Source of the DNA: a virus
IMG/VR virus record: IMGVR_UViG_3300012349_000001
Reading direction: 5' to 3' (one strand)
Length of the DNA: 60,532 nt
The notes beneath the pieces are model-generated. The model was not told the origin of the DNA. It saw nothing but the letters and a program-made list of their open reading frames with translations, and did no database searches. Made by a program: the position numbers and the translations under genes. This document shows, one piece after another, positions 3,155 through 33,535 of the stretch. How positions within the stretch are numbered: the first letter of the stretch is position 1; each line of letters begins with the position of its first letter.

Positions 3155-3223
3155 AGCAATATTTCCTTTCTTCGATGTTAAACGGGTGGGAAGGGGAAAT
3201 ATAACTTATACAAGAAGGGAGCC

Positions 3224-4279
3224 ATGACAGCAAGTAACAATTATTACGGTTTTGTCGGCTTTCTTAGCCCGGCATATGCCTTTACACTTTACGATCAAAA
3301 TGGGTCACCATTGAATCTGACAGGTGTTGACGCTGCAACCATGGCATTTGAGTTGTTTGATATCAACGCACGCACAACAATACGCGGAAGCGGGACAATC
3401 ACCATTGTCAATGCTTCTCAAGGACTTGTCAGTTATCAATGGACATTTCAAGACTATGAGGCAATTTCAATTGCAAATTATAGAGCATATGCGACTGCAA
3501 AATTGCCAGGAGAAGCCGGGCCGCGTGCCTTTTTAGTTGGCACTGTTCTATTTGCTACTTTCCCAGGAGGTGCACCAGTGGCCGTACAAGATGTCAATCT
3601 CGACCAAGTAAATGGTCAAAATGTCCCCACTACCGTAAATGGTATCTCAGTTCCTAACGGGACGGTTCCAGTTGTAGTGGTAGTTCCATCAAGAGTAAAT
3701 GCGCAGTCAGGTGATTTTGCTGCTGGGGCCATAGCAGATCTCGCAACGCTTTTAGCTCTTGCAGGCACTTCAGGAGATGCCAACACCGTCAATAGCTTGA
3801 TGGGCAGGTTGACGAAGCTCAGGGACTTGCTGAGCGCATCACTTGCAGTCAATCTTGATGCGACAAACTCAACACATCTAGGCAATATCGATACTGCTAC
3901 CAGTGACCTCGTAGCCGATCTGGACACGCTCATCACGAACACAGGGAGAATACCAGCCTCTCCTGCTCAGGAAGGAGGCAATCTTGCCACGCTCATCCCT
4001 GGTGTGCAGGGATGGATCGCTGCTACAGGTCCCGGGACAGCAGGCCAGGATAACGCTCTCGCCTTTGCGCAACAAGTGCGTAAAATTGCACTCTACAATG
4101 CGAGTCCAAACAATGTGCCTCTTGAATTTGACCAGACAGCAGCGGCAACCTCTTTTCCCATTCCACCCGGGGCATTCTGGATTATCGATGGCGCTCTCTG
4201 CACTAATGTGCATGTGTTCCCATCGGTCACATTGCCAATTAACACGACCAGTGGTCTCTATGTGAAAGGATGGAAGTGA
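3224..4279 (+). CDS. tail fibre/baseplate-associated protein, 351 aa
   Basis: SD GAAGGGAG before the ATG; lies in the tail array. Function by position. Confidence 0.5.
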   Translation: MTASNNYYGFVGFLSPAYAFTLYDQNGSPLNLTGVDAATMAFELFDINARTTIRGSGTITIVNASQGLVSYQWTFQDYEAISIANYRAYATAKLPGEAGPRAFLVGTVLFATFPGGAPVAVQDVNLDQVNGQNVPTTVNGISVPNGTVPVVVVVPSRVNAQSGDFAAGAIADLATLLALAGTSGDANTVNSLMGRLTKLRDLLSASLAVNLDATNSTHLGNIDTATSDLVADLDTLITNTGRIPASPAQEGGNLATLIPGVQGWIAATGPGTAGQDNALAFAQQVRKIALYNASPNNVPLEFDQTAAATSFPIPPGAFWIIDGALCTNVHVFPSVTLPINTTSGLYVKGWK

Positions 4280-5790: not shown

Positions 5791-5804
5791 AAAGGAAAAG
5801 GACA

Positions 5805-5996
5805 ATGCAGGAGACAATGGAAACGGACCTTTCCACAATAACCAATATTATGGAGTTGAAGGCCCATAAAGCCGACCAATATGACATCTTGGAGAATGCG
5901 AATAGGCAAATCCGAATAGCAGAGATGAACATTCAGGCTATCAACACGCGGATTGCACAACTACAACACCAGCAAGAGAAAGAAAAGGAGGTTTAG
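5805..5996 (+). CDS. small coiled-coil protein, 63 aa
   Basis: SD GAAAGGAAAAGG before the ATG. Heptad-like sequence. Sits between the fibre and the endolysin. Confidence 0.5.
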   Translation: MQETMETDLSTITNIMELKAHKADQYDILENANRQIRIAEMNIQAINTRIAQLQHQQEKEKEV

Positions 5997-6803
5997 ATGT
6001 CAGATTATAGCAAGGCACTATGGATACCGAACAACAACTATTTCCCTAATACAGGCAAGAAGAGCTTCTTGATACTTCACTCTACTGCCGGGGGCTCGTC
6101 TGCTCAGGAGATAGCCAACTACTTCAAAGGTACTGAGGGCTCAAACAATCCCGTCTCAAGTCATTATGTGATTGGGAAGGATGGTACAGTCATTCAAACT
6201 GTACGGGAAGCTGACGGCGCATGGGGGAACGGTGTCGTAACTAACTCAAACTGGACTGGAAACCCAAATCTGTATACTATCAGCATAGAGCATGTGAAGA
6301 GCAGCACAGACAATTCAGAGCCTCTTACACCTGCTCAGCAAGCGGCATCTTTCGCACTTATCAAAGACATCTGCCAACGGAACGGGATAGGGATGCATGA
6401 TGCTGATAATACAACAGGCATCACTGGTCACTTTAGTATTGACCCGGTAAATAGGGCAAGATGTCCAGGTAACTTTGATTTTAATGCTTTATGGGCATAT
6501 CTATCAGGAGGAACACCAGTGGCAAACACACAACCAACACCTTCTCAGCTCAAATCAGCTCAAGACTCGTGGGACAGCGTGCTCAAGAGTACACCGGCTG
6601 GGCCAGCACCAAAGGGGACTGGCATTTACCAGGCGTGGGTAGCTGCTCTTGTGGTGTCTGGCAAGTTCTACGGTCCTCCACTAACCCGCGAGTATGACTC
6701 TGTAGATTGGAATGGCAACAAAATCACGGTCCAGGAATTTGCACATGCTAGATGTGAGTGGAACGGATCTGCCAATTGGTACGATGCACACGGGAAGATT
6801 TGA
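5997..6803 (+). CDS. endolysin, N-acetylmuramoyl-L-alanine amidase (Amidase_2/PGRP-like) with a C-terminal extra domain
   Basis: Motifs FLILHSTAGG, SSHYVIGKDGTV, DGAWGNG and YTISIEHV. Confidence 0.8.
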   Translation: MSDYSKALWIPNNNYFPNTGKKSFLILHSTAGGSSAQEIANYFKGTEGSNNPVSSHYVIGKDGTVIQTVREADGAWGNGVVTNSNWTGNPNLYTISIEHVKSSTDNSEPLTPAQQAASFALIKDICQRNGIGMHDADNTTGITGHFSIDPVNRARCPGNFDFNALWAYLSGGTPVANTQPTPSQLKSAQDSWDSVLKSTPAGPAPKGTGIYQAWVAALVVSGKFYGPPLTREYDSVDWNGNKITVQEFAHARCEWNGSANWYDAHGKI

Positions 6804-6811
6804 GGAATGAT

Positions 6812-7171
6812 ATGAACCAAACGATCAATACGATCATCTTCATCTTTGGGGTATTCATCGCTGTCTTTGCAGCATTGTACATCATCTATATCATCAAGCA
6901 GAAGCTTCCTGAGCATATACGCGTGGCTCTAGAGCAGTTCGCTCGGCAATCTGTCTTTCAAGTTGAGCAGACGAGTGGGACTCTTTCCGGGCCAGCAAAG
7001 AAGCAACTAGCTGTTACGGCTGTGATGAAGCTCTTTGAAGCGTTTAGCTTGCCTGCTCCACCTCTGGTAGCCATAGACATAGCTATAGAGGCTGCTGTGT
7101 ACCTGCTCTCAAAGGTGACCGTGGTCGAGAGCAACGAAAAGCCTCAGATTGAAGCACCTAAGCAGGGATAG
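6812..7171 (+). CDS. holin-like membrane protein, 119 aa
   Basis: N-terminal TM segment TIIFIFGVFIAVFAALYIIYII. Immediately follows the endolysin. Confidence 0.6.
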   Translation: MNQTINTIIFIFGVFIAVFAALYIIYIIKQKLPEHIRVALEQFARQSVFQVEQTSGTLSGPAKKQLAVTAVMKLFEAFSLPAPPLVAIDIAIEAAVYLLSKVTVVESNEKPQIEAPKQG

Positions 7172-7173
7172 CT

Positions 7174-7527
7174 ATGAACGCGATTGCTCAGGGACTGAAT
7201 GCGAATGCTGGCATATTCAGCATGCTCATTGTCTGCCTTAGTGCATGGTATGCCGTAAAAGCCATGTCTAAGAGCAAGGCGAATGAGGATGTGAACAATG
7301 CACAGCAGAGGCTAATGAGCACGATGAAGGATGAAATTGATGGATTGCGTAGAAAGGTAGATGATACGGCAAAGGATAACACACGGCTAAGGCAGACGAT
7401 AGATACAATGTGCTCTGCTCTGAAGAAACAGGGGCTTATTATCACGATTGATGGGGATTTGATTATTATAGGCAATAGCAAGGGAGATAATACGATAGCG
7501 CGTATTCAGGAGCAAATCGTCTCATGA
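7174..7527 (+). CDS. membrane-anchored coiled-coil protein (lysis accessory candidate), 117 aa
   Basis: One N-terminal TM segment followed by a charged helical region. Last gene of the + strand late block. Confidence 0.5.
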   Translation: MNAIAQGLNANAGIFSMLIVCLSAWYAVKAMSKSKANEDVNNAQQRLMSTMKDEIDGLRRKVDDTAKDNTRLRQTIDTMCSALKKQGLIITIDGDLIIIGNSKGDNTIARIQEQIVS

Positions 7528-7557
7528 AAGAGCCCCGAGTTGTTCACCGGGGCCTAA

Positions 7558-7691
7558 AGTACCCTACCAGCGGGTCGTATTGGATTAAGTAGAGAGTATA
7601 TCCCTATGCAGTTGCAGTACCCTCTAACGGGTCAATAGTGTGCAGTATCCAAGTCGAAAATGGATGGTGTTGCAGTACCCTCCAACGGGCT
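7558..7691. repeat. three ~18-19-nt direct repeats AGTACCCTnnnAnCGGGyy spaced 58 bp apart
   Basis: Copies at 7558-7576, 7616-7633 and 7674-7691. Copies 2 and 3 also share the GTTGC prefix. Located in the 236-bp gap between convergent modules. Confidence 0.85.
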
Positions 7692-7763
7692 AGATATTAG
7701 TATACCAGCAAGACCTAACCCTGGCAAGCCTGTCTCTCTAACAAGCTTGCCACTCTGGGATAA

Positions 7764-8069
7764 TTATCTTTGTGAAGGTTCAGGCACTTTCTCTTTGTAC
7801 TGAGCAAAGAGCACTGCCATCATAGCACGGTCGTACTCCTCTTCTTCAAGAGCAACGTAGTATACATATCGGAAGCTAGCTGGAAGTTGAAATTTTCCCT
7901 GTTCAATCCCTTCCCACTTGCACATTTCTATGATCTTGCCTGTTCTCCCTGACCAATTGTCCAAGGCAAATTGTATTGCCTCTTTGTGCTCCGGTGCTTC
8001 TAGAATTTCGTCATGCAGCACCTCGCCAGTTTCAGGATTTTGGAACCTGACTTCGATCACTTGAGCCAT
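7764..8069 (-). CDS. hypothetical protein, 101 aa
   Basis: ORF whose start overlaps the stop of the upstream - strand gene. Confidence 0.6.
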   Translation of the reverse strand: MAQVIEVRFQNPETGEVLHDEILEAPEHKEAIQFALDNWSGRTGKIIEMCKWEGIEQGKFQLPASFRYVYYVALEEEEYDRAMMAVLFAQYKEKVPEPSQR

Positions 8070-8485
8070 TATTCATCCTCCCCTACTGGCTCCCAATCCT
8101 GGTCAAGAAGCCCTTTTTCTTGGATGACCTTTACGGCAGCCTCAATACTAGATACTTCCTGATGCTCATTTGCTGGCATACCTTGTACACCAGTCTTGAT
8201 AGTGTATGTGCCATCCAAGAGACTGCCATCTACTACGGTGTACATGTTGTTGTACTCTGTTCTTGCAGTAGAGTACTCACTCTCTCCAATTGCTTGCTGA
8301 AGAGTCACAATACCGTTGAGTTGTCTTACACGTCTATGGGCGTTCTGCCGATGCTTATAGACTTTCCCGTAGTCAGCAGGACGAGAGTTACCGTCCTCTC
8401 CGAGGAACATGATTGACCATCCGCCGACAGTCTGATAAGCCTTGTAGGTCCCTGGTTGGTGATTAACGAAAATTGTTGTAGACAT
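8069..8485 (-). CDS. hypothetical protein, 138 aa
   Basis: First gene downstream of the consensus promoter at 8536-8564; SD GAAAGGA. Confidence 0.65.
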   Translation of the reverse strand: MSTTIFVNHQPGTYKAYQTVGGWSIMFLGEDGNSRPADYGKVYKHRQNAHRRVRQLNGIVTLQQAIGESEYSTARTEYNNMYTVVDGSLLDGTYTIKTGVQGMPANEHQEVSSIEAAVKVIQEKGLLDQDWEPVGEDE

Positions 8486-10639: not shown

Positions 10640-10800
10640 ACATTGCCTATACATCCTGAATTGCTGTCATGTTGTTGGGGCTATTTTCATTGTGTGACGT
10701 ACTCTCGCTATGCGGCATGGGCTTCTACGGGATCACCCGTTGGCTCCGTCCGAACCGAAAGTTGTTTTTGCCCTAATCTCAAGATGTTGATAGCCGCATT
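10640..10800 (-). ncRNA. candidate omega/reRNA scaffold of TnpB; boundaries not determined
   Basis: In characterised TnpB elements the guide RNA overlaps the 3' end of tnpB and the right end. A hairpin ACGGG-TGAT-CCCGT is visible here. Confidence 0.3.
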
Positions 10801-11919
10801 GTGATCACGGTCCAGCTCACAGCCACATTCGCATGAGTGCCAGCGTTCAGATAGCTCTTTCTTCTTGACCATTCCACATCCTGAGCAGGCTTGGCTTGTG
10901 TAGGATGGATTCACAAAGAGGACAGATCTACCAGCGTTTGCAGCTTTGTATTTCACCATCTCTGTAAAATTGTACCACCCGGCATCTAAAATTGACTTGT
11001 TTAACCCGCCTTTTGCAGCAGCCCCATTGTGCAAATACTCCCCGTTCTCACCTTGTTTGGGTTTAGGAGCTTTAGAAAGGTTTGCGGGTGCTAAATCTTC
11101 AAAGACAATCACCTGATAGCGATTGACCAGCTTACGAGACTCTTTGTGATGGAAGTCCTTACGCTGGTTACGTACCTTTCGATAAGCCTTAGCAACCTGT
11201 CTAACAGCTTTCTTACGCCTATGGGACCTGCGTTTCTTGCCAGAAAGCTTTCTCTGAAGTTTGGCTAACTTCTTCTCAGCACGTCGGTAGTGTCTAGGAT
11301 TCTCGATCATACTACCATTGGAAAGAGCAGCAAAATGGGTAATACCTAGGTCAATCCCCACGTCTTCACAGGAGAGTGGTGTGGTGTTTGCCTCTACTTC
11401 GCAGGCAAACACCACGTACCATGCATCCCCCTCACGTTTGATGGTTGTTGTCTTGATACTCCCTTCAAGTGCTCTATGCATCTTGACAGTGATAGATCCG
11501 ATCTTTGAAAGGATGAGCTTGGCATGTTTCTTCTCACTTGGGTTAAACTTCCATCCTGAACCATCTGGGTAGGTAAAACTATCATAGCGGTTACGCCCTT
11601 GAAATCTAGGAAAGCCGGGCTTCTCGCCTGCTTTCACCCGCCTGAAGAAAGCTTTATATGCAAGATCAACGCGTCTCAGCACGTTAGTAAGTACATGAGC
11701 ACCAATTTCTTGATACTCAGTGCGGATCTCGTGTTTAATCTCAGGGAGATCATTTATCTGATCAAAGCAAGTAATGCCCTTCTGTGCATACTTATAGGCC
11801 TCTTTGCGCTCTTGCAGAGCCGCGTTGTACAGCTCTCGACAACGGTCCAGTGTCCATTGCAGCTTTTGGGCAACTGCCTGGTTAGGATACAGCCTATACT
11901 TATATGCTTTTATTGCCAC
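10708..11919 (-). CDS. tnpB: TnpB (IS200/IS605-family RNA-guided nuclease), 403 aa
   Basis: RuvC motifs IDLGITHFA, VIVFEDL and LDRDHNAAINI. Zinc finger CSGCG...CECGC. GTG start after AAAGGAGGT. Confidence 0.9.
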   Translation of the reverse strand: MAIKAYKYRLYPNQAVAQKLQWTLDRCRELYNAALQERKEAYKYAQKGITCFDQINDLPEIKHEIRTEYQEIGAHVLTNVLRRVDLAYKAFFRRVKAGEKPGFPRFQGRNRYDSFTYPDGSGWKFNPSEKKHAKLILSKIGSITVKMHRALEGSIKTTTIKREGDAWYVVFACEVEANTTPLSCEDVGIDLGITHFAALSNGSMIENPRHYRRAEKKLAKLQRKLSGKKRRSHRRKKAVRQVAKAYRKVRNQRKDFHHKESRKLVNRYQVIVFEDLAPANLSKAPKPKQGENGEYLHNGAAAKGGLNKSILDAGWYNFTEMVKYKAANAGRSVLFVNPSYTSQACSGCGMVKKKELSERWHSCECGCELDRDHNAAINILRLGQKQLSVRTEPTGDPVEAHAA

Positions 11920-14967: not shown

Positions 14968-15591
14968 TTACTCGACAACTAGCTTACCGCGTACTAGACG
15001 AGCTTTTTTGCCTTCAGGCAACTGCATAGCTGCCAACTCAGGAGAAAGCTCTTTCTTGGCACGCTTCACTTTCACAGGCTCTGCAACTGCTTTGCCTGCC
15101 TCAACAATTTCGAAGGAACCTTTACCGCAGCGTCCGTATGCCTCGATCTTGGCACCCTTTCGGACTCGAACCTTGATCTCATAGCGGACTGAGAATGCAT
15201 GATTGCTATCTCCGCTTGTGAAGCCGCCCTTGCTCTCCAAGATCTCGAACTGCTTGGAGGATCTGACCAAGGATCCATACTGCATGTTGATCACGTCGCA
15301 ACCATCGACCGTAACACCGTGAGGATACGATCGCTTGTAGGTGTTGTCGGTCCAGACAACCATCTCAATCGTCTCGTACTCAATCTGAGCCTCTTCACCA
15401 TCGATCTGGAAGTACTTGCGGACAATCTCACGAGCTTGACTCTCGAACTTCATCGGGACGATCCAAGCCTTCTGGACGCCGTTCCATCTGCGATTGGGGA
15501 GACTCTTGATCTCCTCTACCAAGCTTGCATTATAGGGGCTCTTGATTGCGACCTCTCCATTAAGAGTGTTGATCAACATTGCTTTTGTCAT
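14968..15591 (-). CDS. hypothetical protein, 207 aa
   Basis: First gene after promoter copy B; SD GAAGGAG. Confidence 0.65.
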   Translation of the reverse strand: MTKAMLINTLNGEVAIKSPYNASLVEEIKSLPNRRWNGVQKAWIVPMKFESQAREIVRKYFQIDGEEAQIEYETIEMVVWTDNTYKRSYPHGVTVDGCDVINMQYGSLVRSSKQFEILESKGGFTSGDSNHAFSVRYEIKVRVRKGAKIEAYGRCGKGSFEIVEAGKAVAEPVKVKRAKKELSPELAAMQLPEGKKARLVRGKLVVE

Positions 15592-15613
15592 TGCCTCGCT
15601 CCTTCAAAATCGT

Positions 15614-15664
15614 TTACTTAACTGCTATGTCTACATTGTAAACTATCGTAAACAGCTTGTCAAG
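15614..15664 (-). promoter_or_regulatory. 51-bp promoter cassette copy B (TTGACA-N17-TACAAT)
   Basis: Identical to 13756-13806. Confidence 0.8.
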
Positions 15665-15792
15665 AGGAAAATGGCCAATTCGGAGGCAGTTTTGAGAAAC
15701 CCATCATACCCGTATTGCATCTCTAAAAATAGGCAAAGAAAGAGGCCTCTAGATTTGACTCTGAGGCCTTATCAATTCTGGTGTAGAGACGG

Positions 15793-16023
15793 CTACACAG
15801 CTTCTGTCAATACTGACGTGGTAAGCAGCTTATTCAGCGTACTGCTCTTGATCCTATACGCCTGCCGCTTGTTTACGTGAGGTAGAACAACAACCTCCAA
15901 AGCACCAGCTTTCGCCCAGCGGCGTACGGTTGTGTCATCAACACGTACTCTCTTAGCTACTTCTGCCACGGTTAGCAGCGTATCTTCCTCTTGATGGTGT
16001 GCATGGCCTGTATGTGTGGACAT
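15793..16023 (-). CDS. excisionase/MerR-type HTH DNA-binding protein, 76 aa
   Basis: LLTVAEVAKRVRVDDTTVRRWAKAG helix-turn-helix; SD GAAGGAG. Confidence 0.6.
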   Translation of the reverse strand: MSTHTGHAHHQEEDTLLTVAEVAKRVRVDDTTVRRWAKAGALEVVVLPHVNKRQAYRIKSSTLNKLLTTSVLTEAV

Positions 16024-16072
16024 GATATATTTCTCCTTCTACTGAGAATAGACAATCAAATGCATGTATCAC

Positions 16073-16100
16073 ACTATACCATAGCATCTGCAAATGTCAA
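16073..16100 (-). promoter_or_regulatory. promoter TTGACA-N16-TATAGT
   Basis: -35 at 16095-16100 and -10 at 16073-16078 on the - strand, with TGG just 5' of the -10 box. Confidence 0.6.
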
Positions 16101-16187
16101 TCAATTCTGCTTGTGCAACAAAAATGTGACACATCTTGGCACATTCCCATATAGACATAGACTACTTCCATCCGCTATAATAGAGCC

Positions 16188-16398
16188 ATGATCTAAAAGT
16201 CACATGCGGTTATTTTGACGTTGATGGGTTATGGTAGATGTGTACAGCGGCTGCATGAGGCTGGAGGATACTTGCTACGACAAATTAAAACCTGTCGGGG
16301 GACGCCGCTTTCATTGATTGGCAGAGGAAGTGGCGTTTCTCGTTGTGTGAGGATAAAAAGAGGGCTCGACCAAGATAGATGGTCGAGCCCTCTTTTGT
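16188..16398 (+). ncRNA. candidate ~210-nt noncoding transcript
   Basis: Runs from a TAGACA-N18-TATAAT promoter (16152-16181) to the bidirectional terminator. No convincing ORF or SD inside. Confidence 0.3.
16355..16398. terminator. bidirectional intrinsic terminator
   Basis: 13-bp stem AGAGGGCTCGACC/GGTCGAGCCCTCT. T-run on the + strand and TTTTTAT on the - strand. Confidence 0.8.
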
Positions 16399-16408
16399 GC
16401 AGATGAAG

Positions 16409-16609
16409 CTAGAGAGAAAGATCGTTGCCAGTGATGCTGACCGGAGCTGTGACAGGGGATGTGACGTTGCCCACTGCCACTCTATTGAGTGCGTCAAGTG
16501 TCACATCACCAACATTCAGCAGATCAGTGACACTGAGCCCACCAGTGATACCAGCCAGCTCCTCATCAGATAGTTCCCGCTCGTCATTAAAGCCATTGTC
16601 CTTGTCCAT
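16409..16609 (-). CDS. secreted-peptide precursor with a double-glycine leader, 66 aa
   Basis: LSDEELAGITGG matches the leader consensus LSxxELxxIxGG exactly. SD AGGAGGA precedes the start and a strong terminator follows the gene. Confidence 0.7.
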   Translation of the reverse strand: MDKDNGFNDERELSDEELAGITGGLSVTDLLNVGDVTLDALNRVAVGNVTSPVTAPVSITGNDLSL

Positions 16610-16641
16610 CGTTCCTCCTGAGAAAGGTTTTCATCAGTATA

Positions 16642-17361
16642 TCACAGTTTGCCGTGCTTTCTCAATAGCTCTACAGCACTCTCTTGCTGCTCATACGTAA
16701 AATACCTATTCGAGTATCCCTTGCGACTTGTTGGTACTAATGTTACATCCATCCTTTCACCAGCTATGCCGCGCCTGATATACCCGTCTAGGAGTGTGTA
16801 TTCGATGCCAATCTTAGTAGCGAAGTCGCGAGCTGAGAGTATGCCGTCTCCAGATGGCCCTACAATCGATTTCTGAGGCTGCGTTTTTGTGGTGGATGCA
16901 TGAGAGGATGAGACAGGGATAGACATGCTAGGACTATCTGTAGCAGGTTGTGACTGAGCTCTCTCTATCTCGCTTACGCGGCGTTCCAGCTCTTCGATAT
17001 AAGCTTGCTGCATATCGCAACGAGCCTGAAGCTTGCCTAGCTGCTTTACCGTCTCTGCGAGGGTTGTATCTGTCAGAGGCAGGCTGTCTACATCTGTCTC
17101 AGCCTGTCTATTAGTAGATGTGACAGCTTGTGAAGTTCTGAACATGTCTCGCTCACGTTGGACTTCTAAACGCAAATGCTCAACTTGATCTTCAGAGATA
17201 ACGAGCTGACCAGTGGGGGTTTTGCCCTCTTCCGGGACAATCTTGCCTCTCTCAATGTATCTGAGCAATGTCTTATAGCTTATCCCAATACGCTTAGCAG
17301 CACTAAGACCGTTATAGTAGTGCATAGCATGTCTCATCCTGTCTCTATAGTCTTGAGACAA
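16642..17361 (-). CDS. DNA-binding protein with N- and C-terminal HTH-like segments and a central coiled coil, 239 aa
   Basis: GISYKTLLRYIERGKI and SARDFATKIGIEYTLLDGYIRRG. TTG start; an internal ATG is an alternative. Confidence 0.55.
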   Translation of the reverse strand: MSQDYRDRMRHAMHYYNGLSAAKRIGISYKTLLRYIERGKIVPEEGKTPTGQLVISEDQVEHLRLEVQRERDMFRTSQAVTSTNRQAETDVDSLPLTDTTLAETVKQLGKLQARCDMQQAYIEELERRVSEIERAQSQPATDSPSMSIPVSSSHASTTKTQPQKSIVGPSGDGILSARDFATKIGIEYTLLDGYIRRGIAGERMDVTLVPTSRKGYSNRYFTYEQQESAVELLRKHGKL

Positions 17362-17447
17362 AGCTTGCCATTACCGGGACGCCGTGTCAACGAACAAGAG
17401 TTTCAAGGCAACAAAATAGCCCCTCTTGCGAAGGGCTGTACGCGCTA

Positions 17448-17642
17448 CTATTGACAGATATGCACAGAAGGTTGCATTTTACCACAGCAGTCACACCAGT
17501 CCCATTTGTCCGCTTCTGAGTCGCTTGCAATGTTCGTACTCACCTTCTCAGCATATCGCCTATGGCCTTCTGGACTGAGTATTCTTTCGAGATATGCTTG
17601 CCCATAGGCTTGTAACATCTCCGAATATTCGTCTCGTTTCAT
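17448..17642 (-). CDS. small Cys-containing protein, 64 aa
   Basis: SD GGAGATGAGAGG before the ATG; C-terminal sequence CDCCGKMQPSVHIC. Confidence 0.5.
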   Translation of the reverse strand: MKRDEYSEMLQAYGQAYLERILSPEGHRRYAEKVSTNIASDSEADKWDWCDCCGKMQPSVHICQ

Positions 17643-17660
17643 CCTCTCATCTCCTTTCTT

Positions 17661-18752
17661 TCATACATCCAATTCTACCAGATCTTCTAGCGGTCTGGTG
17701 ACTTTTCGATGTCCGTTTGTAACTGGTAACGGATCGGTGTTTTGCTCCGCTTGGCTGGCCGGCAATTCGCCACTATCAGCGGCGTTTTGCTCTGCTCTAT
17801 TCGTCGGCAATGGGACGGTTTTGAGCCAGTCGATAACCGATGATACCAAGATCAAATCTTTGTTCCTTCCAGAGCGTTGAAACGGCGCTCTATTGATCCG
17901 TCGTTTCGATTGTCCGGTGACCTGCATAATCTCGTCCAAAGTGACGGTCTTCTTGTTCTTTGCTAGCCATTCATTCGCCACTTTTGGATAGTTTTCCAGG
18001 ACCTGCAAAAGATCGGTATCCACCGGGTTATGCTCAGCAGATTGAGTAGGCGCTGAGACGTTTTGGGCTGGCTCATTCTGCTCAGTATCCACCGTGTTTG
18101 GAGCAACTGATCCGGGCTCTATAATTGCAGGTGCCTGGGCAAAGATAATTGAGTTTTGCATCTCTTTCAAACGCTGTTTTAGGTCCTCAATTTGCTCTTC
18201 AAAAGCCGCTTTTAATTGCTCCGATTCGCTCTCTATAGCCTGATTTACAATAGCCTCAATATCAGGCTCCATAACGTCTATCGATTCGTCTTTCAAAGTG
18301 TGGATTGCATGACCGAATAAGACCGCCATAACTGAGCGAATGATGAGCAGAATACCCTCTGTGATTTGCATCCATTGGACTGGAACAGCGAACACCCTGC
18401 CAGCCGTTGCAAAGATCATATTAATGACCATCAAAACGATTAATGCGACGCCGATTCCCCTAGCAAATTTGAACTTCTCAGGGTCCTCATCCTTGGTCAA
18501 TTTGATGAGTCCCATTCCTCCCACATCAAGAGCCGCTTGCTGAATGACGAACGCCACAGCATTGATACTCGGTGTAGGCTGTGGGACACCTGGGACAAGC
18601 TCATAGCCGCTATAGAGCACTGAGGCAAAGAGCACAGGCTCAGCAGCTTTACCAGCTAGCCCCAGAAACCAATTCCATAAGGCTGTGATGTAGTTGCTCC
18701 GAACGAAGCCACGCCAGAGCTGACGCCCATTGATACGCTTTAAATTGAACAT
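17661..18752 (-). CDS. polytopic membrane protein with a C-terminal HTH-like region, 363 aa
   Basis: About 4 hydrophobic segments in the N-terminal 170 aa. C-terminal TLDEIMQVTGQSKRRINRA. Confidence 0.6.
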   Translation of the reverse strand: MFNLKRINGRQLWRGFVRSNYITALWNWFLGLAGKAAEPVLFASVLYSGYELVPGVPQPTPSINAVAFVIQQAALDVGGMGLIKLTKDEDPEKFKFARGIGVALIVLMVINMIFATAGRVFAVPVQWMQITEGILLIIRSVMAVLFGHAIHTLKDESIDVMEPDIEAIVNQAIESESEQLKAAFEEQIEDLKQRLKEMQNSIIFAQAPAIIEPGSVAPNTVDTEQNEPAQNVSAPTQSAEHNPVDTDLLQVLENYPKVANEWLAKNKKTVTLDEIMQVTGQSKRRINRAPFQRSGRNKDLILVSSVIDWLKTVPLPTNRAEQNAADSGELPASQAEQNTDPLPVTNGHRKVTRPLEDLVELDV

Positions 18753-19244
18753 TTACCGTTTCCTCCTACGAGTTACTTTCTTCCTAATTCCTAGCTTCTT
18801 TTCCCTCTCAGCAAGTGCAATCCTTCGCTCTCTCGCCTCTAGATTGGCCCGCTTCCTTGCACTTGCCTGCACACGCTTGACGGTCTTGTGAGCCTTCCTG
18901 ACACCTTTCACAGTGCCTGCTACAGCTCGCCCGGTCGCTTTCGCACCAGCCCATAGTACAGCACCAGTCTTGCGAGCGAACCGACCGAAGCTATCACGTG
19001 GCTGCTCTTCACCCGGCATACGATAGGCTGGTAGAGCTTTCTTTGGCCTGGCCTCTACCCGCGTCTGCTTCATCGTGGCCTTAGAGCGTGCTATGGTAGC
19101 CTTGTGCTGCATAGTGTTTGGCTTGCAAGCTTTGGCAGTGGGCCTCACGTTGCGTGTACGGGCCGCTCTCACTGCCTGGGCCTCGGCCTCTTTCCACTCC
19201 TGAGCTGTCATCTTTTTCAGTGGGAGATCTTCCATGCGTTCCAT
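18753..19244 (-). CDS. highly basic Lys/Arg/Ala-rich protein, 163 aa
   Basis: Abuts both neighbours without gaps. Composition suggests nucleic-acid binding. Confidence 0.55.
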   Translation of the reverse strand: MERMEDLPLKKMTAQEWKEAEAQAVRAARTRNVRPTAKACKPNTMQHKATIARSKATMKQTRVEARPKKALPAYRMPGEEQPRDSFGRFARKTGAVLWAGAKATGRAVAGTVKGVRKAHKTVKRVQASARKRANLEARERRIALAEREKKLGIRKKVTRRRKR

Positions 19245-20824
19245 CAGGCGTTCCCCCTCCTGCGCTGGTCGTACTCATCACAGACCGCTTTCACCATCCA
19301 ATATTCATCACCATTCAGATCAAGCATTCCCTGGATGTCAGTCCTCTTTGTGCCATCCCTGTATAAGCCAAGAATGGCTTCTTTCGCCCTTTCGGGTACC
19401 TCTTTGCCCACGGTCTTTCGCGGATACTCCGAAAGTTTCGAGATGTTCTCAACTGGCTCTACAAGGCTTTCGAGACTATTTCGCCATGGTTCGCTGCTTG
19501 CTTGCTTGTTTTCATCGAAATTTCGAGACTGCTGATATTGCCTAAGCTCACTTAATCCAGGTGTATTAGCCCCATGTGGTGAATGCCTTACACGCATTTG
19601 TACAAGCATCTTGCTCACTTTGGATGAGAAAAAGTAGCCTTGCCCATCATGAAGAGAAAGCGTCTCATCATTGGTTATGCCCATAGCAGTGTACTTTTTC
19701 AGATCGTTTAATTCGGTCTGCCGATGGAGCAATTTGACATCACACTGAAGAGCCCGCTTGTCAACCTCTGCTATTTTCTGGCAGATGACCGTCAAGCCCA
19801 GTCCTCGCTTGCGACCCTTCCTCACCATGTCATTGAAGAAAGCATCTTGCAGGCGGTTGAAGATCTCGGTCCCGTTCAACTGACTCTCATTCACATTTTG
19901 TGGGAGCCAGGTCGTTGCCTCTTCTAGTAGGAATTCACACGGGACACGTATCTCGTTCGCTCGCTCTTCCTGCCATTGCTTCATACCAGCGATGATATTG
20001 ACCATGATCTGTGCTGCCTCTGGCATCTCGTATGAGTGCAGGTTAAGCACAGCCTGAATATTCTGCTCTAGGACATGCCTACCGAATTGCTCAGCATTCC
20101 CAACATTGACGACTCGGCTATCTACTCTCATCGCATGAGGCAGATAGCGACGGTCACAGAGAGACTCGTATTCGTTCTCAGTATCTGCCAGCACCATCGG
20201 TACATCTAGACGGCCTAACTCCTCACAAGTCGTTGCTGTACTGTTGCTCTTTCCAGAACCTGAAACCCCCACAATCAGTTTCCTGCCAGACAGGAATTCG
20301 TCAGCATGTGGCTGGTAGTCCTCTGAGATGTTGAGGTATTCATTGACTGGCTTTGCTTGCTCGATTCTTTTCGTGTCATCTTCAGTGTCGTCATCATAGC
20401 CGTACTCATCTAGAAGCGGCATGAGTCGCTGTATGGCAGTTGAAGCAGACCCAACAACCTGAGCAGTCTTCTGTTGCTGGCCTATCAATTGAGCTTGCAT
20501 TTGAAGCAATTCAGTAAGCCCCAGACCCTCAGCAGATCCGATCTGTATCACCTGAGTGCCACGCACCACAATAGCACGTGCCACTTGCTCGCCTTTGCCA
20601 TCCTTGATCACCAGAGTGTGACGACCTTTCCAGATTTTGACGCCTATAGCCGCGCATCCGAGTCCAACCCCTGTGAAAAAGAGGATCTTGAGCCCTGTAA
20701 CAAGGTCCCTCAAGAACGAGAGGAAGCCAGCATGGATAGCCGGATCTAGCAGGAGCAAGAATGATCCAAGAATGATGACACCAATGAAACACAGCCCTGC
20801 GAGGACAGTATCTTTCGTATTCAT
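19244..20824 (-). CDS. membrane-anchored HerA/FtsK-superfamily (DUF87-like) P-loop ATPase, 526 aa
   Basis: N-terminal TM segments; Walker A GVSGSGKS; DTENEY; Walker B LLEEATTWLP; KGRKRGLGLTVICQK. ATGA overlap with the upstream gene; SD GGAGG. Confidence 0.75.
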   Translation of the reverse strand: MNTKDTVLAGLCFIGVIILGSFLLLLDPAIHAGFLSFLRDLVTGLKILFFTGVGLGCAAIGVKIWKGRHTLVIKDGKGEQVARAIVVRGTQVIQIGSAEGLGLTELLQMQAQLIGQQQKTAQVVGSASTAIQRLMPLLDEYGYDDDTEDDTKRIEQAKPVNEYLNISEDYQPHADEFLSGRKLIVGVSGSGKSNSTATTCEELGRLDVPMVLADTENEYESLCDRRYLPHAMRVDSRVVNVGNAEQFGRHVLEQNIQAVLNLHSYEMPEAAQIMVNIIAGMKQWQEERANEIRVPCEFLLEEATTWLPQNVNESQLNGTEIFNRLQDAFFNDMVRKGRKRGLGLTVICQKIAEVDKRALQCDVKLLHRQTELNDLKKYTAMGITNDETLSLHDGQGYFFSSKVSKMLVQMRVRHSPHGANTPGLSELRQYQQSRNFDENKQASSEPWRNSLESLVEPVENISKLSEYPRKTVGKEVPERAKEAILGLYRDGTKRTDIQGMLDLNGDEYWMVKAVCDEYDQRRRGNA

Positions 20825-21174
20825 GCCCTTACCTCCTGCACTCCAAAAAAAGACATGATCGATGGTAAAAGGACACAGGTGAGCTTTATGCAGATAAGCA
20901 GCATAGCCCACGTGACGAACGTTGCAGCTACAGCTACATAATTGCCATTTAACAGGGAAAATGTCGCTTGACATACGCCGCTAAGCGCATGGATGAAGAG
21001 GACAAGCACGCCACATGCCCAGATGAGCACGTAGAATGCAAGAGCAAGTGCGGTCACGATAGCCGCAATGCTCGCGATGTATGCCAAGACCTGCAGCGTT
21101 GACCGTGCAGTCCTGATGAGGTTGTCACTTGGTATAAAAATTGTCATTAGCTTGGCTCCTTGCATGGCTACCAA
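20821..21174 (-). CDS. polytopic small membrane protein, 117 aa
   Basis: 3-4 hydrophobic segments. Translationally coupled to the ATPase gene. Confidence 0.6.
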   Translation of the reverse strand: MVAMQGAKLMTIFIPSDNLIRTARSTLQVLAYIASIAAIVTALALAFYVLIWACGVLVLFIHALSGVCQATFSLLNGNYVAVAATFVTWAMLLICIKLTCVLLPSIMSFFGVQEVRA

Positions 21175-21266
21175 GCTTCTGTTACTATGCTGGCAGCCCT
21201 GGTCTATTCAGGGTGAGTCCAGCCCTGGATTGATTTGCCGTCGCCAGGGCTGGACGCTACGAATTA

Positions 21267-21488
21267 CTACCAGCCACGCTCACGGTTGAGCTTGTGCTGA
21301 ATACGCTCTACATCGGCGTCGCTGATATCCGCAATATGACCAGCATTGCCAGCTCTACCTTGCAGAATGTCTTGCACTCCTCTGGTGTTATAGTGGCGAT
21401 AGAGAGCACCACTGCTACCGCGCATGTATTCTTCAGCAGCTTTTAGCTGAGACTCTTCAGAGCTGTCTTTCCTACTAAACCAACTCAC
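21267..21488 (-). CDS. hypothetical protein, 73 aa
   Basis: GTG start 1 nt after the upstream stop. Confidence 0.5.
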   Translation of the reverse strand: MSWFSRKDSSEESQLKAAEEYMRGSSGALYRHYNTRGVQDILQGRAGNAGHIADISDADVERIQHKLNRERGW

Positions 21489-21489
21489 G

Positions 21490-21843
21490 TCATTCTCCTT
21501 TCTCTGGCAATCGCTCCAATATCAACTTCTGCACCTCAGCTATAGCATCGAAGCGATTTTCCATGTCCTGAAAACCTTCATCCATCTTTTGCTCTAAACG
21601 TGCTACTGTCTGCTTGAGCGTGCTGACATCGGTCTTCAGCGTGCCCACATCCTGCTTGAGCACTCCAATATCCGTGGCCTGCTGTCCGCTCTGCCTCAGA
21701 AGCGTCTCCAGCAGCAGCGTCTCTCCTTCTGTCGGTCGCTGCTCAAGCACAACCCTCATCGGCTCAGTGTGCTGCTCTTTGAGCTTGGCAACTTCAGCTT
21801 TGAGCTCATCGAACTCTTCACGCGTTGGTGGATTCATCCTCAC
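21490..21843 (-). CDS. coiled-coil protein, 117 aa
   Basis: Repeated LKxDVxTLK heptads; SD GGAGGTGAGG. Confidence 0.6.
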   Translation of the reverse strand: MRMNPPTREEFDELKAEVAKLKEQHTEPMRVVLEQRPTEGETLLLETLLRQSGQQATDIGVLKQDVGTLKTDVSTLKQTVARLEQKMDEGFQDMENRFDAIAEVQKLILERLPEKGE

Positions 21844-21959
21844 CTCCTACTAGAACTAATATTCGTTGTACAAATGGTGTACTTTAGCTATACTTACACT
21901 TAAGTAGTTGTTGGCGTGTGGCTGTTTGGCTAATCAACTGGAAAGCCACGCGCCGGGAG

Positions 21960-22229
21960 CTACGCCGCCTCTTCACCCTTCTTGGTTTTTGCGGGATACT
22001 TCCGATCTCGCAAAGGGTTATACAGCTTCAGACCTTCCACCTTATCGATGGTAATCTGCTCTCCGACTTTACTGCTAAGAGCGTCTAGCACCTTCTTGGC
22101 TACATCTTGTGTCGTGTGCTTTTCTCCTTCTTCCATACGGATGATAGTAGATTCAGACACACCAGCCGCTTTTGCCAGCACTCTTCTGCTGATGTAATTA
22201 CTTTCTCGAATTTCTCTAAGAGTCGGCAT
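21960..22229 (-). CDS. XRE/Cro-CI-type HTH regulator, 89 aa
   Basis: ISRRVLAKAAGVSESTIIRMEEGE; SD AAAGGAGG. First gene of the leftward arm. Confidence 0.7.
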   Translation of the reverse strand: MPTLREIRESNYISRRVLAKAAGVSESTIIRMEEGEKHTTQDVAKKVLDALSSKVGEQITIDKVEGLKLYNPLRDRKYPAKTKKGEEAA

Positions 22230-22257
22230 AGCAACCTCCTTTCGTTAGGATAAAAAT

Positions 22258-22287
22258 ATCATACCATACAGCTTAGGTTCTTGTCAA
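22258..22287 (-). promoter_or_regulatory. leftward promoter TTGACA-N18-TATGAT
   Basis: -35 at 22282-22287 and -10 at 22258-22263 on the - strand, with TGG just 5' of the -10 box. Confidence 0.6.
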
Positions 22288-22333
22288 GCATATTTGCTAT
22301 CAATTTTCCTATCAATATTGATTGAATACATGG

Positions 22334-22362
22334 TTGACAACATGCTAGCAATGTGTTATTAT
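22334..22362 (+). promoter_or_regulatory. rightward promoter TTGACA-N17-TATTAT
   Basis: -35 at 22334-22339 and -10 at 22357-22362. CTATCAAT occurs twice, with the palindrome TCAATATTGA just upstream. Confidence 0.65.
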
Positions 22363-22410
22363 AAGAGAGTCGAGAGACACGAAAATCTTGTAAAGCAATG
22401 GAGGGACCCT

Positions 22411-23001
22411 ATGGAGCATGCAACTGAAGGATGCACCTGCGAGGGTAAATTCTGTAAAGATTGCAAGCAAACAAAGTGCTTAGGCCATATGTGCTGGTAC
22501 AATTTCAATGGTCAGAAGCATTATCGCTTCTGGTGCATCTCTTGCTATAGTAATTATAGAAAAGAAAAGGGGGTCACAAAAAGATGGTACCAGAAGCATA
22601 AGGTCGAGAATAACCAATGGCAAAAGAACAATCCTGATAAGGCGGCAAGAAGTACCAAGAAATGGCAAAAGAACAATCCTGATAAGGTAAAAGCAAATCG
22701 ACATGTCGGTAGACAAAAACACAGAGCTAGAAAAAAACGAGCTGTTGGTACTTATACATTCAATGAATGGGCGACACTAAAGGCCAAGTATAACAACACT
22801 TGTCTCCGCTGCGGTCGTAAAGAACCAGAAATCAAGTTGACTGCCGATCATGTTGTACCACTCTCAAAAGGAGGTGATAACTACATAAGCAATATACAGC
22901 CTTTATGTCATTCCTGCAATTCAAGCAAGAGAGCAAAAACCATCGATTATCGTACTCAGAAAGAAACAGAACAGCCCCTGCGCCAACAGAAGCTGTTCTA
23001 G
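22411..23001 (+). CDS. HNH endonuclease with an N-terminal zinc-ribbon/NPDK-repeat region, 196 aa
   Basis: C-terminal CLRCG...LTADHVVPLSKGGDN..NIQPLCHSCNSSK. Start set at MEHATEG, after GGAGGGA. Confidence 0.8.
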   Translation: MEHATEGCTCEGKFCKDCKQTKCLGHMCWYNFNGQKHYRFWCISCYSNYRKEKGVTKRWYQKHKVENNQWQKNNPDKAARSTKKWQKNNPDKVKANRHVGRQKHRARKKRAVGTYTFNEWATLKAKYNNTCLRCGRKEPEIKLTADHVVPLSKGGDNYISNIQPLCHSCNSSKRAKTIDYRTQKETEQPLRQQKLF

Positions 23002-23253: not shown

Positions 23254-23853
23254 ATGAGTGATATACCACAAATACATTGCACAGGATCTTGCGGAAGAAC
23301 TCTTCCGGCCACTGCTGAGTACTTCCATCCCAATAGACACAGGTGCAAACAATGCATAGGAGAATACAACAAGCATTACTATGCCAATAAACAAAACCGC
23401 ATAAAAGAATATAATGGGCATAGAAAAGAGAAGAAACAAGAATACGATAAGCATCGCTATGCTAATCCTGAGATGAGAAGCAATGTAAGGAGACACCAGA
23501 ATCAACAATATCATGATGACCCTGAAATACGCAAACAATGTTACACCCGTGTCCGAAATCGCTACGCACGCAAAAAATCAGTGCAAGGCACTCATACCTC
23601 TGAACAAATTCAAGATCAGCTAAAAAGACAAAAGTATCGTTGCTATTATGCCGCTTGTGGCAACGCCAAGTTCAAAAAGAAAGACGGTAAATACATCTAC
23701 CATATTGATCACACATATCCCATTAGCCGTGTTGCTGGTAGCGATATCCCTGCGAATAGCATCGACTATCTAGTGCTGGCTTGCCCCGCGTGTAATCATA
23801 GCAAAAAGGACAAATTCCCATGGGAGTGGGCAGAAGGAGGTAGGTTATGTTGA
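23254..23853 (+). CDS. HNH endonuclease with an N-terminal zinc-ribbon/NPE-repeat region, 199 aa
   Basis: C-terminal HIDHTYPIS...LACPACNHSKKDK; SD GGGGAGAAA. Confidence 0.8.
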   Translation: MSDIPQIHCTGSCGRTLPATAEYFHPNRHRCKQCIGEYNKHYYANKQNRIKEYNGHRKEKKQEYDKHRYANPEMRSNVRRHQNQQYHDDPEIRKQCYTRVRNRYARKKSVQGTHTSEQIQDQLKRQKYRCYYAACGNAKFKKKDGKYIYHIDHTYPISRVAGSDIPANSIDYLVLACPACNHSKKDKFPWEWAEGGRLC

Positions 23854-32440: not shown

Positions 32441-33535
32441 ATGAATAAGAATATCCCCTCTCATGAGACAAAAATGGAGCCCCTTGTGTCTTTCCCGTAC
32501 AATGCATTTCTCATGGTGCGCCTGGAATATGTCCAGATCTTACGGGATGACCTTCAAGCCAAGCTACTTAGGATCATTGAAGCTCATATAGAAACGCAGC
32601 GCCTGGTGCTCTACCGAGAGGCCATGAACAAGTCTGACTCGAATCAACCCATAGATATTCCAAAGGATATCTATGTCCCCATCTCGTACAAGCTTTTCAT
32701 GAATGATCTATTTGGCTTGGTTTCAAGTGAGAATACGATTAAGAAAAATCTTAATATCTTGATCAGCTATAAAATCATCTTCAGAAAAGAGGCACCAAAG
32801 AAGAAATATGCTCCTCCTGAGTACAGCATTAACACCACTGCATTGCAGATGCTTCTTGATGCCCTCAAAAATCCAGGGTATCAAAGTTTGATACCCTCAA
32901 TTCTTGATACCCTCAAACTTTCATACCCTCAAGAGTTGATACCCTCATGGTATCAACTCTTGATACCCTCGATTCTAAAATCAAGCTCAGATGAAAAATC
33001 GAGGGTATCACAGGTTGATACCACTATAAGATTAGAAGAAGATTACTCTAGTAAGAATGAAAGCCCCGATCCTTCACCCATTCCTTCATCCCCACAATCA
33101 TCTCCTATAGCCACTACGCCTACAGGAAACGATCCCATGCCTGACTTGCCTTCCAAGCAGCGAAACACTGAGCCACTTCTTACGGCAGAGGAGAGACGTG
33201 TATTCGATCTGCTTTGTGAGGTCTTCTATGCCATACCACCTGAGGTCATCACGCCCAAGATCAAGAAACAGTGTGCGGATCTTGCTCCTCATGTGCGTAA
33301 TGCTGAAGATTTGAAGAGCTTGCGAGACTATGCACGGCTTCAGATCGACAATGACCCAAACGCCATGGACAAACAGATCTACCTGGGGAATTTGATTAAA
33401 GCTGTGAATGGGTGGAAGCAGAAGCAGACACAGGAACGGGTTACAGTGCTTGAGGAAAAGAAGCGACTTAGAACAGAAAAACAAGTAAAAGAAGAATGGA
33501 ATGCCTCACTAAGAGCAGATCCATGGGCTAGATAG
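32441..33535 (+). CDS. replication initiator candidate (lambda O-like arrangement: iterons inside the gene), 364 aa
   Basis: Lies immediately upstream of dnaB and carries the TTGATACCCTCA array at 32856-33022. Confidence 0.55.
   Translation: MNKNIPSHETKMEPLVSFPYNAFLMVRLEYVQILRDDLQAKLLRIIEAHIETQRLVLYREAMNKSDSNQPIDIPKDIYVPISYKLFMNDLFGLVSSENTIKKNLNILISYKIIFRKEAPKKKYAPPEYSINTTALQMLLDALKNPGYQSLIPSILDTLKLSYPQELIPSWYQLLIPSILKSSSDEKSRVSQVDTTIRLEEDYSSKNESPDPSPIPSSPQSSPIATTPTGNDPMPDLPSKQRNTEPLLTAEERRVFDLLCEVFYAIPPEVITPKIKKQCADLAPHVRNAEDLKSLRDYARLQIDNDPNAMDKQIYLGNLIKAVNGWKQKQTQERVTVLEEKKRLRTEKQVKEEWNASLRADPWAR
32856..33022. repeat. iteron array, consensus TTGATACCCTCA
   Basis: Perfect copies at 32888, 32904 and 32936. 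One-mismatch copies at 32856, 32920 and 32960. Inverted partial copies at 32877, 32949 and 33000. The first four tandem copies (32888-32936) are 16 bp apart. Confidence 0.85.

Follow-up and report, generated by a model that had tools for sequence, protein, structure and literature searches.

The genome IMGVR_UViG_3300012349_000001 of a tailed soil phage, a stretch of 60,532 nucleotides (nt) that we refer to as the window, encodes in its leftward gene unit a membrane-anchored ATPase of 526 amino acids (aa) which, judged by sequence profiles and a predicted structure, belongs to the HerA branch of the FtsK-HerA superfamily. The conserved unit around this ATPase is a module of two to four genes, of which only those of a polytopic membrane protein and the ATPase itself are broadly conserved; the families of a basic 163-aa protein and of a 363-aa membrane protein occur in subsets of the related loci. 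We tentatively read the module, at a probability of roughly 35%, as a membrane-embedded apparatus for the translocation of double-stranded DNA (dsDNA) that would move the DNA of the element across a septum or the cell envelope. A preliminary description of the locus, made from the sequence alone, had treated the eight genes that follow an XRE regulator gene as one cassette. This did not hold up: since related loci share no more than two to four of the genes as a group, the eight-gene cassette is a local arrangement around a conserved core, and a terminator-like hairpin probably splits off the last gene, which encodes a 239-aa protein.

The ATPase had been credited with N-terminal transmembrane (TM) helices and DUF87/HerA-type motifs, and hydropathy, Pfam, a profile search of PDB sequences and Foldseek all agree with this. 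It carries GVSGSGKS, DTENEY, LLEEATTWLP and KGRKRGLGLTVICQK. Across 28 homologues, with identities down to 29%, the columns of Walker A, DTENEY, Walker B (LLEEA), WLPQ and GRKRG are invariant or nearly so, and the retention of the catalytic motifs over 28 sequences points to an active ATPase under selection. Hydropathy predicts two N-terminal TM segments. In the AlphaFold2 model (mean pLDDT 80, above 90 through the core), two TM helices are followed by a small beta element, a long helix, the P-loop core (approximately residues 160-435), a disordered linker (440-473) and a three-helix helix-turn-helix (HTH) domain (478-525, pLDDT about 90). Residues 70-95, which follow the TM helices and were checked for a HAS barrel, are modelled as three short strands only (pLDDT about 50-70). 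The Pfam domain DUF87 (PF01935, the HerA central domain) matches with 29.0 bits at a cut-off of 23.2. A profile of the 28 homologues retrieved Sulfolobus HerA (4d2i) as the best of the PDB sequences (E = 6.6e-8), followed by defence HerAs, and a Foldseek search of the PDB with the model returned HerA structures at all of ranks 1-26 (E down to 2.6e-11), then STIV2 B204 and DndH. Among the viral models of BFVD, the best folds are packaging ATPases of membrane-containing viruses (PH1, corticovirus, STIV), and the matches also include a few phage proteins labelled "HerA" or "FtsK". The family as a whole keeps the C-terminal HTH domain, which in distant members matches winged-helix Pfam models below cut-off (HTH_Crp_2, Fe_dep_repress) and in one locus (L018) is encoded as a separate small open reading frame (ORF). 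As modelled, the domain plan is that of FtsK, SpoIIIE and TraB, with a motor of the HerA type.

Of the profile families to which the preliminary description had pointed, only DUF87/HerA was matched above cut-off; FtsK_SpoIIIE, TraB and the VirB4/type IV coupling protein (T4CP) models were not. FtsK_SpoIIIE gave no Pfam match at E<=0.1, and NCBIfam plasmid_TraB reached 11.9 bits against a cut-off of 800. Using a repeat finder, a tandem-repeat finder and k-mer counts, we found neither a clt-like repeat array within 15500-22400 nor, over the whole genome, any 8-10-mers that were clustered or skewed, a result that leaves room for a dispersed or degenerate motif. Nor was a GntR-type Kil-Kor regulator found beside the window ATPase, where the XRE regulator lies instead. 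Membership in the TraB/FtsK family, and with it the suggested assignment to TraB/Spd transfer systems, was rejected on the missing FtsK_SpoIIIE match, the low plasmid_TraB score and the absent clt-like array. P-loop_TraG scored 17.9 bits (cut-off 25.8) and VirB4-like NCBIfam models 13-16 bits (cut-offs 325-590), and the leftward unit of the window contains no relaxase; type IV secretion system (T4SS) or T4CP membership was rejected on these grounds. The NCBIfam models HerA_antiphage (17.5 bits, cut-off 800) and CedD (13.3 bits, cut-off 600) scored similarly low. PADLOC HerA models and mad8 matched the ATPase in part (E=2e-13 to 5e-9; mad8-like E=5.4e-9) and mad1 matched the 239-aa protein (E=2.4e-8). 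Scans of the leftward-unit proteins with Pfam, PHROG, PADLOC and NCBIfam revealed no nuclease domain, NurA-type or other, and PADLOC gave no match to a SIR2 or DUF4297 effector in any neighbour of the ATPase. With their effector partners absent, SIR2-HerA and DUF4297-HerA were discarded, and the idea of a known HerA defence system fell with them. The same holds for MADS, of which only mad8- and mad1-like matches were found; mad6 and mad7, which its detection model requires along with mad8 (MADS preprint), are missing. A viral packaging ATPase of the PRD1 P9/STIV B204 type was rejected as well, the phage having a large terminase (TerL), a major head protein and a tape measure.

In a profile search of 1.84 billion representatives, the ATPase family amounts to 307 clusters (50% identity) at E<=1e-30, a number that rises to 1538 at E<=1e-10. 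Those of its members that were looked up bear no functional name beyond automatic domain labels, and a literature search found no description of the family. A nucleotide search with positions 16000-23000 against 50,697 phage records gave no match, and a tblastn search of phages with the ATPase gave one weak match only, a "hera helicase" at 26% identity. Against 72,556 plasmids, tblastn retrieved only haloarchaeal DUF87 proteins, at about 28% identity over the core and on plasmids all typed as non-mobilizable. Such plasmid-borne relatives are represented by L016, Natrinema plasmid NZ_CP084477.1; the one neighbourhood inspected was uninformative. In three of the listed haloarchaeal plasmid records the match begins within the first 130 bases of the record.

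The 65 loci that we collected for members of the ATPase family (designated by L numbers) fall, at 90% ATPase identity, into 51 groups. Of these, 34 extend far enough upstream to be informative, and in 28 of the 34 a gene for a protein with two or more TM segments stops where the ATPase begins, often overlapping it by 4 nt; in the window, the stop codon of the 117-aa membrane gene and the ATPase start share an ATGA, as read in the preliminary description. With respect to neighbourhood conservation, the pair of membrane protein and ATPase thus stood, and the remaining genes proved partly conserved or not at all. Genes downstream of the ATPase were counted in the 26 groups with at least 1.8 kb of downstream sequence. 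Ten of these have a ParM-like actin (actin-like protein, ALP; PF17989) in this place (L003, L007, L009, L012, L014, L019, L024, L034, L035 and L044), followed in the loci inspected by an acidic adaptor of about 100 aa. The 363-aa family takes the place in seven groups (the window, L013, L040, L046, L047, L059 and L065) and another protein with at least three TM segments in three, and none of these types is found in six. ALP and the 363-aa family occur together in none of the 26 groups (hypergeometric probability of no overlap about 0.017). The module is 36-77% identical among phages that have few other genes in common, and its retention in such phages would suit a life-cycle function more than an accessory role.

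The ATPase, the basic protein and the 363-aa protein are products of real genes rather than chance ORFs, because each has tens of metagenomic homologues. The 117-aa membrane protein has at least two TM segments by hydropathy and homologues in L011 and L012. Upstream membrane proteins are recognisably homologous within the close clade only; between close and distant loci, homology was not shown by alignment, and it is position and topology that are kept. The 163-aa protein had been called extremely basic, and indeed combines an isoelectric point (pI) of 11.8 with 48 Lys and Arg residues. Its family shares the motif QPRDSxGRF, comprises 30 clusters, is present in seven of the 51 locus groups and is confined to the close clade of the ATPase; several of its members lie on contigs equal in length to contigs of ATPase-family members, and so appear to share contigs with them. 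For the 363-aa protein, about four TM segments and a C-terminal HTH had been proposed, and the AlphaFold2 model is in line with this: four long helices (20-154), which are the predicted TM helices, precede a coiled-coil helix (165-206), a disordered, acidic linker and, at the C-terminal end, a winged-helix-like domain (244-310). The family comprises 86 clusters and has no Pfam model, and Foldseek found no significant PDB match to the model (best E=0.14). Equivalent proteins in L011 and L008 have the same architecture and weak profile matches. The coiled-coil, 73-aa, Cys and 239-aa proteins encoded beside the module had no counterpart by BLAST in the first dozen related loci, later loci not having been searched for them. 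A homologue of the XRE regulator in L012 is 70% identical and lies on the strand opposite to the ATPase, so the linkage of the XRE gene to the module is not conserved.

Most carriers of related modules are phage-like, among them L011 (tape measure, lysin), L013 (intein-containing terminase), L012 (DNA polymerase A) and the 95-kb contig L003 (holin and amidase); L007-L010 are IMG/VR contigs. ParA genes near the module in L003, L018 and L019 suggest that these are phage-plasmids or plasmids, and in L003 a GntR/UTRA regulator is encoded just upstream of the module. L014 is chromosomal (313-kb contig, 55% G+C) and arranges an HTH_17 gene, a 4TM protein, the ATPase, ALP and adaptor, and a large serine recombinase adjoining housekeeping genes; the 21 kb covered showed no recognisable phage structural gene. 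Behind the ATPase gene, L015 encodes a TM-anchored SLT lytic transglycosylase.

Two further loci contain relatives of the 363-aa protein. In L021, a chromosomal-type locus, positions 487-7990 encode an 89-aa TM protein, a T4CP-like ATPase (TrwB_AAD_bind, 32 bits, above cut-off) and Replic_Relax (76 bits), and further downstream a serine recombinase and then the homologue of the 363-aa protein; the element is flanked by an NB-ARC/TPR gene. In the phage L022, positions 5090-8203 encode a small 3TM protein, a TM-anchored P-loop ATPase of 519 aa and a protein of the 363-aa family, the same three-gene layout. By profile this ATPase falls outside the family, with marginal N-terminal similarity only (E=0.049), which suggests either replacement of the motor or extreme divergence.

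With these data, a stepwise mechanism can be sketched. The 363-aa winged-helix membrane protein would bring the DNA of the element to the membrane, a task that in the sister elements a ParM-like actin filament and its adaptor would perform instead. The DNA would then be engaged by the C-terminal HTH of the ATPase. The ATPase, which we assume to form a hexameric ring, and its polytopic partner, which might contribute a pore, would drive the DNA through a septum as it closes, through a cross-wall or through the cell envelope; substrate, direction and purpose of such pumping are what we infer. By this route the phage genome could reach neighbouring compartments, daughter cells, spores or cells without virions.

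Several features favour translocation. The plan of the ATPase (TM anchor, motor, linker, HTH) follows the logic of FtsK, SpoIIIE and TraB, its coupled polytopic partner recurs in most loci, and the place downstream alternates between ALP and the 363-aa family, both of which can be seen as DNA-positioning devices. The relative of the 363-aa protein in L021 keeps company with a T4CP-like ATPase and Replic_Relax, the L014 module sits by a serine recombinase without recognised structural genes in the 21 kb covered, ParA is encoded nearby in other loci, and the L015 ATPase precedes a lytic transglycosylase. Lastly, to our knowledge, the characterised membrane-anchored FtsK-HerA ATPases (FtsK, SpoIIIE, TraB, T4CPs, CedB, TdtA and PRD1 P9) move DNA across a membrane or septum.

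Comparison with the closest known systems gives a mixed picture. CedA, CedA1 and CedA2 membrane proteins and the CedB ATPase make up the crenarchaeal Ced import system. The likeness to Ced consists in a HerA/VirB4-like ATPase with N-terminal TM helices and small polytopic membrane partners, CedB moving DNA across the membrane; unlike Ced, the module gives no significant sequence match, lies in a bacterial phage and has no recognised pilin-like component. With FtsK and SpoIIIE the ATPase shares, by its model, the order of TM anchor, linker, motor, flexible linker and C-terminal winged-helix-type domain, but it belongs to another clade of the superfamily, has two TM helices and a short linker, is encoded on a mobile element with a dedicated polytopic partner, and no skewed recognition motif was found in the phage. 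NurA-HerA and the defence HerAs provide the best core matches in sequence and structure, and the DTENEY strand, Walker B and Arg-rich GRKRG are of HerA type. These HerAs, however, are soluble proteins that begin with a HAS barrel and act with a partner nuclease or NADase, whereas the window ATPase has TM helices, a C-terminal HTH and no effector partner. The phi29 protein p16.7 brings phage DNA to the membrane, and the 363-aa protein resembles it as a membrane-anchored putative DNA binder; we know of no membrane ring ATPase that partners p16.7.

In Streptomyces, where they serve dsDNA conjugation and intramycelial spreading, TraB and its Spd partners form a membrane-located multiprotein DNA-translocation complex from translationally coupled genes (PMC4447253). 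The window module is like it in having a membrane-anchored FtsK-HerA ring ATPase with a C-terminal DNA-recognition domain (here predicted) and small, translationally coupled membrane and DNA-binding partners without database homologues; the 363-aa protein, with its 4TM and coiled-coil regions, recalls SpdB2, and the GntR/UTRA regulator of L003 resembles TraR/KorA. It differs in its HerA-clade motor, in the lack of a clt-like 8-bp array, in partners without detectable similarity to Spd proteins and in its carrier, a tailed phage rather than a plasmid such as pSVH1 or pIJ101 or an actinomycete integrative and conjugative element. TdtA, encoded on ICEth1 of Thermus thermophilus, is a HerA-like hexamer on a mobile element that is located at the membrane and needed for DNA donation (PMC5365140). 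No TM segments are reported for TdtA, and its partners are a NurA-like nuclease and restriction-modification genes (PMC5365140), in contrast to the TM helices, C-terminal HTH and membrane partners of the window ATPase, which has no nuclease.

A number of points weigh against translocation. The case is drawn from architecture and gene context and is thereby indirect, and the HerA clade also includes soluble repair helicases and defence ATPases. Neither a clt- or KOPS-like array nor a skewed 8-mer occurs near the module or genome-wide, and the window module has neither a peptidoglycan hydrolase nor a relaxase. The module adjoins a genetic switch, a common site of prophage defence and exclusion genes, and the ALP and ParA neighbours would fit purely intracellular positioning equally well. 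The phage probably integrates, its tyrosine recombinase gene adjoining a tRNA-like element, and plasmid-type transfer or partition is not obviously needed.

The host bears on the same question. Judging by its 47% G+C content and the absence of matches in actinomycete genomes, the window phage does not appear to have an actinomycete host. A scan of 185,579 species genomes gave as its sole match a 1.9-kb contig of a Ktedonobacteraceae metagenome-assembled genome (MAG), and NB-ARC/TPR/CHAT genes flank three chromosomal-type loci; both are weak evidence, compatible with a filamentous soil bacterium. The inspection of the terminase, of ALP and of an alanine-racemase-like flanking gene of L014 yielded nothing decisive about the host. 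That a filamentous host is no more than a hint, drawn from the one 1.9-kb MAG contig, is a further point on the opposing side.

As the first alternative, the module might tether or organise the DNA of the element at the membrane for replication, as phi29 p16.7 and CGP3 AlpAC do, or for partition, with the ATPase acting as a remodelling or segregation motor and no transport taking place. We regard this as possible, if rather unlikely. In prophage CGP3, the actin AlpC moves the phage DNA to the membrane by pushing it, and replication is efficient only with both AlpA and AlpC (PMC4446434); the likeness is that our sister loci have ALP and adaptor directly after the ATPase in ten of 26 groups, and three loci have ParA nearby. 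The AlpAC paper mentions no FtsK-type translocase (PMC4446434). Tethering would also suit the 363-aa protein, in which the model unites membrane anchor, coiled coil and winged helix, and the basic protein, which from its composition may compact DNA. Yet a TM-anchored ring translocase with a tightly coupled polytopic partner exceeds what tethering needs, the replication genes (iterons, DnaB) lie 11-15 kb from the module on the other strand, and the window phage has no BLAST-detectable ALP or ParA.

The translocation reading can be taken further, to the statement that the temperate phage and its phage-plasmid or integrative relatives carry a HerA-derived dsDNA translocon convergent with TraB/Spd, with which they spread without virions between cells or by way of the cross-walls within a filamentous soil host, possibly one of the Ktedonobacteria, the DNA being delivered by a ParM-like actin or a 4TM-winged-helix protein. 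Such a virus would possess a built-in conjugation-like route. In this full form we consider the reading unlikely.

More doubtful still is a role in prophage defence, superinfection exclusion or abortive infection, in which the membrane HerA ATPase would either recognise or expel incoming foreign DNA, or else set off damage to the membrane. The position beside an XRE switch is typical of such genes, HerA serves as scaffold in several defence systems, from which many of the best structural hits come, and PADLOC gave the partial HerA and mad8 matches of the ATPase and the mad1 match of the 239-aa protein. On the other hand, the unit holds no effector (SIR2, DUF4297, NurA or other nuclease), mad6 and mad7 are missing, HerA_antiphage stays far below its cut-off, and the partners are membrane and predicted DNA-binding proteins. 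The module is moreover conserved in otherwise unrelated phages and linked to ALP and ParA rather than to variable defence islands, and we know of no defence HerA with a C-terminal HTH.

An auxiliary role of the module at the membrane in the lytic cycle, be it genome ejection or entry, packaging or release, is very improbable: the BFVD folds and a partial match of the ATPase to PHROG 2666 ("terminase large subunit") speak for it, but a canonical TerL and a tape measure indicate an ordinary tailed virion, the gene lies in the arm opposite the morphogenesis genes, and the chromosomal L014 module has no recognised structural genes in the 21 kb covered.

Chromosome segregation, sporulation, conjugation and the import of DNA in archaea are driven by membrane-anchored FtsK-HerA ATPases. 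The family described here is a distinct, unnamed one in which the FtsK/TraB domain plan is rebuilt on a HerA motor, carried mostly by soil phages and phage-like elements and accompanied by two previously undescribed partner families. If the module does move DNA across membranes, it would blur the boundary between phages and conjugative elements, and the family would open a way into the biology of mobile elements in soil bacteria that are hard to culture. Should the module only tether DNA, the strict alternation of ALP and 4TM-winged-helix protein is a testable clue to how phage DNA is positioned at the membrane.

The leftward unit consists of nine minus-strand ORFs, the XRE gene and eight further genes, and all nine are present with the coordinates and strand first assigned to them (Table 1). 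The tight packing of genes extends beyond the ATGA: the ATPase stop and the start of the basic protein overlap in TGATG, and the stop of the basic protein abuts the start of the 363-aa gene (TAAATG). The hairpin at 17437-17418 is the probable end of a transcription unit running from the XRE to the Cys gene, so the 239-aa gene may belong to the next unit. Other features of the preliminary description were borne out, namely the four Cys of the 64-aa protein and the two HTHs of the 239-aa protein, which has an N-terminal MerR/HTH_17-type HTH (Pfam MerR_1, 24 bits) and a C-terminal repeat of the N-terminal HTH helix (self-alignment, pairwise E=5e-4). Between the divergent promoters (22258-22362), a tandem 12-nt repeat (TTTGCTATCAAT / TTTCCTATCAAT) at 22293-22316 likely represents the operators of a genetic switch served by the XRE protein.

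Table 1. Features of the leftward gene unit and other landmarks of the window
Feature	Position	Strand	Evidence or remark
Sigma-70-type promoter, TTGACA-18-TATGAT with TG	22258-22287	-	Consensus scan, 11/12 matches; precedes XRE gene
Second near-consensus promoter, divergent from XRE promoter	22334-22362	+	
XRE/Cro-C1-type HTH regulator, 89 aa	21960-22229	-	First gene of leftward unit; Pfam HTH_3 42.7 bits
Acidic coiled-coil protein, 117 aa	21490-21843	-	Sub-threshold coiled-coil matches only
73-aa protein	21267-21488	-	No family match in any library scanned
Polytopic membrane protein, 117 aa from TTG start (gene callers: 108 aa)	20821-21174	-	
Membrane-anchored HerA-clade P-loop ATPase, 526 aa	19244-20824	-	
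Extremely basic protein, 163 aa	18753-19244	-	
4TM/coiled-coil/winged-helix protein, 363 aa	17661-18752	-	
64-aa protein, 4 Cys in C-terminal part	17448-17642	-	
Terminator-like GC-rich hairpin and T-rich run	17418-17437	-	Between Cys gene and 239-aa gene
Dual-HTH protein, 239 aa (gene callers: 227 aa)	16642-17361	-	After hairpin
Amidase endolysin	5997-6803		
DnaB helicase	33552-34940	+	
Tyrosine recombinase	39276-40187		
Large terminase (TerL)	42549-44033	+	PHROG 38, E=8.6e-86
Major head protein	50571-51656	+	
Tape measure, 1353 aa	56424-60485	+	

The window represents an entire tailed-phage genome, assembled as a circle and encoding a terminase of its own. An exact terminal direct repeat of 123 bp (1-123 = 60410-60532) is the overlap of a circular metagenomic assembly; it shows the assembly to be complete and sets the true genome length at about 60.4 kb. 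The same phage was also recovered from other samples (L001 and L002). That the eight genes are unneeded for siphovirus morphogenesis, as had been supposed, agrees with the separate TerL, head and tape measure genes; with a canonical TerL present, the HerA-type ATPase is not the packaging motor.

About 300 nt downstream of the tyrosine recombinase gene, a tRNA-like element of 65 nt (40491-40555, minus strand) scores 45.6 bits with the Rfam tRNA model (gathering score 29) and is not called by ARAGORN. It has good acceptor and T arms and an aberrant anticodon arm, and may be part of attP or a degenerate tRNA. At 32881-32947, a 16-nt unit (TCAAAGTTTGATACCC) is repeated 4.2 times within a 364-aa ORF (32441-33535) directly upstream of the DnaB gene; these repeats look like the iterons of a lambda-O-type origin inside the initiator gene.

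At the other end of the leftward unit, positions 16409-16609 (minus strand) encode a 66-aa product with a textbook double-glycine leader (ELSDEELAGITGG) and a 42-aa core rich in Val, Thr and Asn, a candidate precursor of a bacteriocin or ribosomally synthesized and post-translationally modified peptide; a 34%-identical homologue is encoded in L003 (5483-5683). Next comes, at 16356-16396 and flanked on either side by A/T runs, a perfect inverted repeat with arms of 17 nt (AAAAGAGGGCTCGACCA and TGGTCGAGCCCTCTTTT) and a spacer of 7 nt; it probably acts as a terminator in both directions and ends the unit behind the 66-aa gene. Further along the leftward arm, 10708-11919 (minus strand) encode an IS605-type OrfB/TnpB protein of 403 aa, of which the viral contig L007 contains a 55%-identical copy and L018 a split copy. 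The rightward operon is headed by two paralogous genes of Cys-rich HNH endonucleases (22294-23001 and 23254-23853), the first of which has an internal 22-nt tandem repeat (22619-22693) encoding two copies of the peptide WQKNNPDK.

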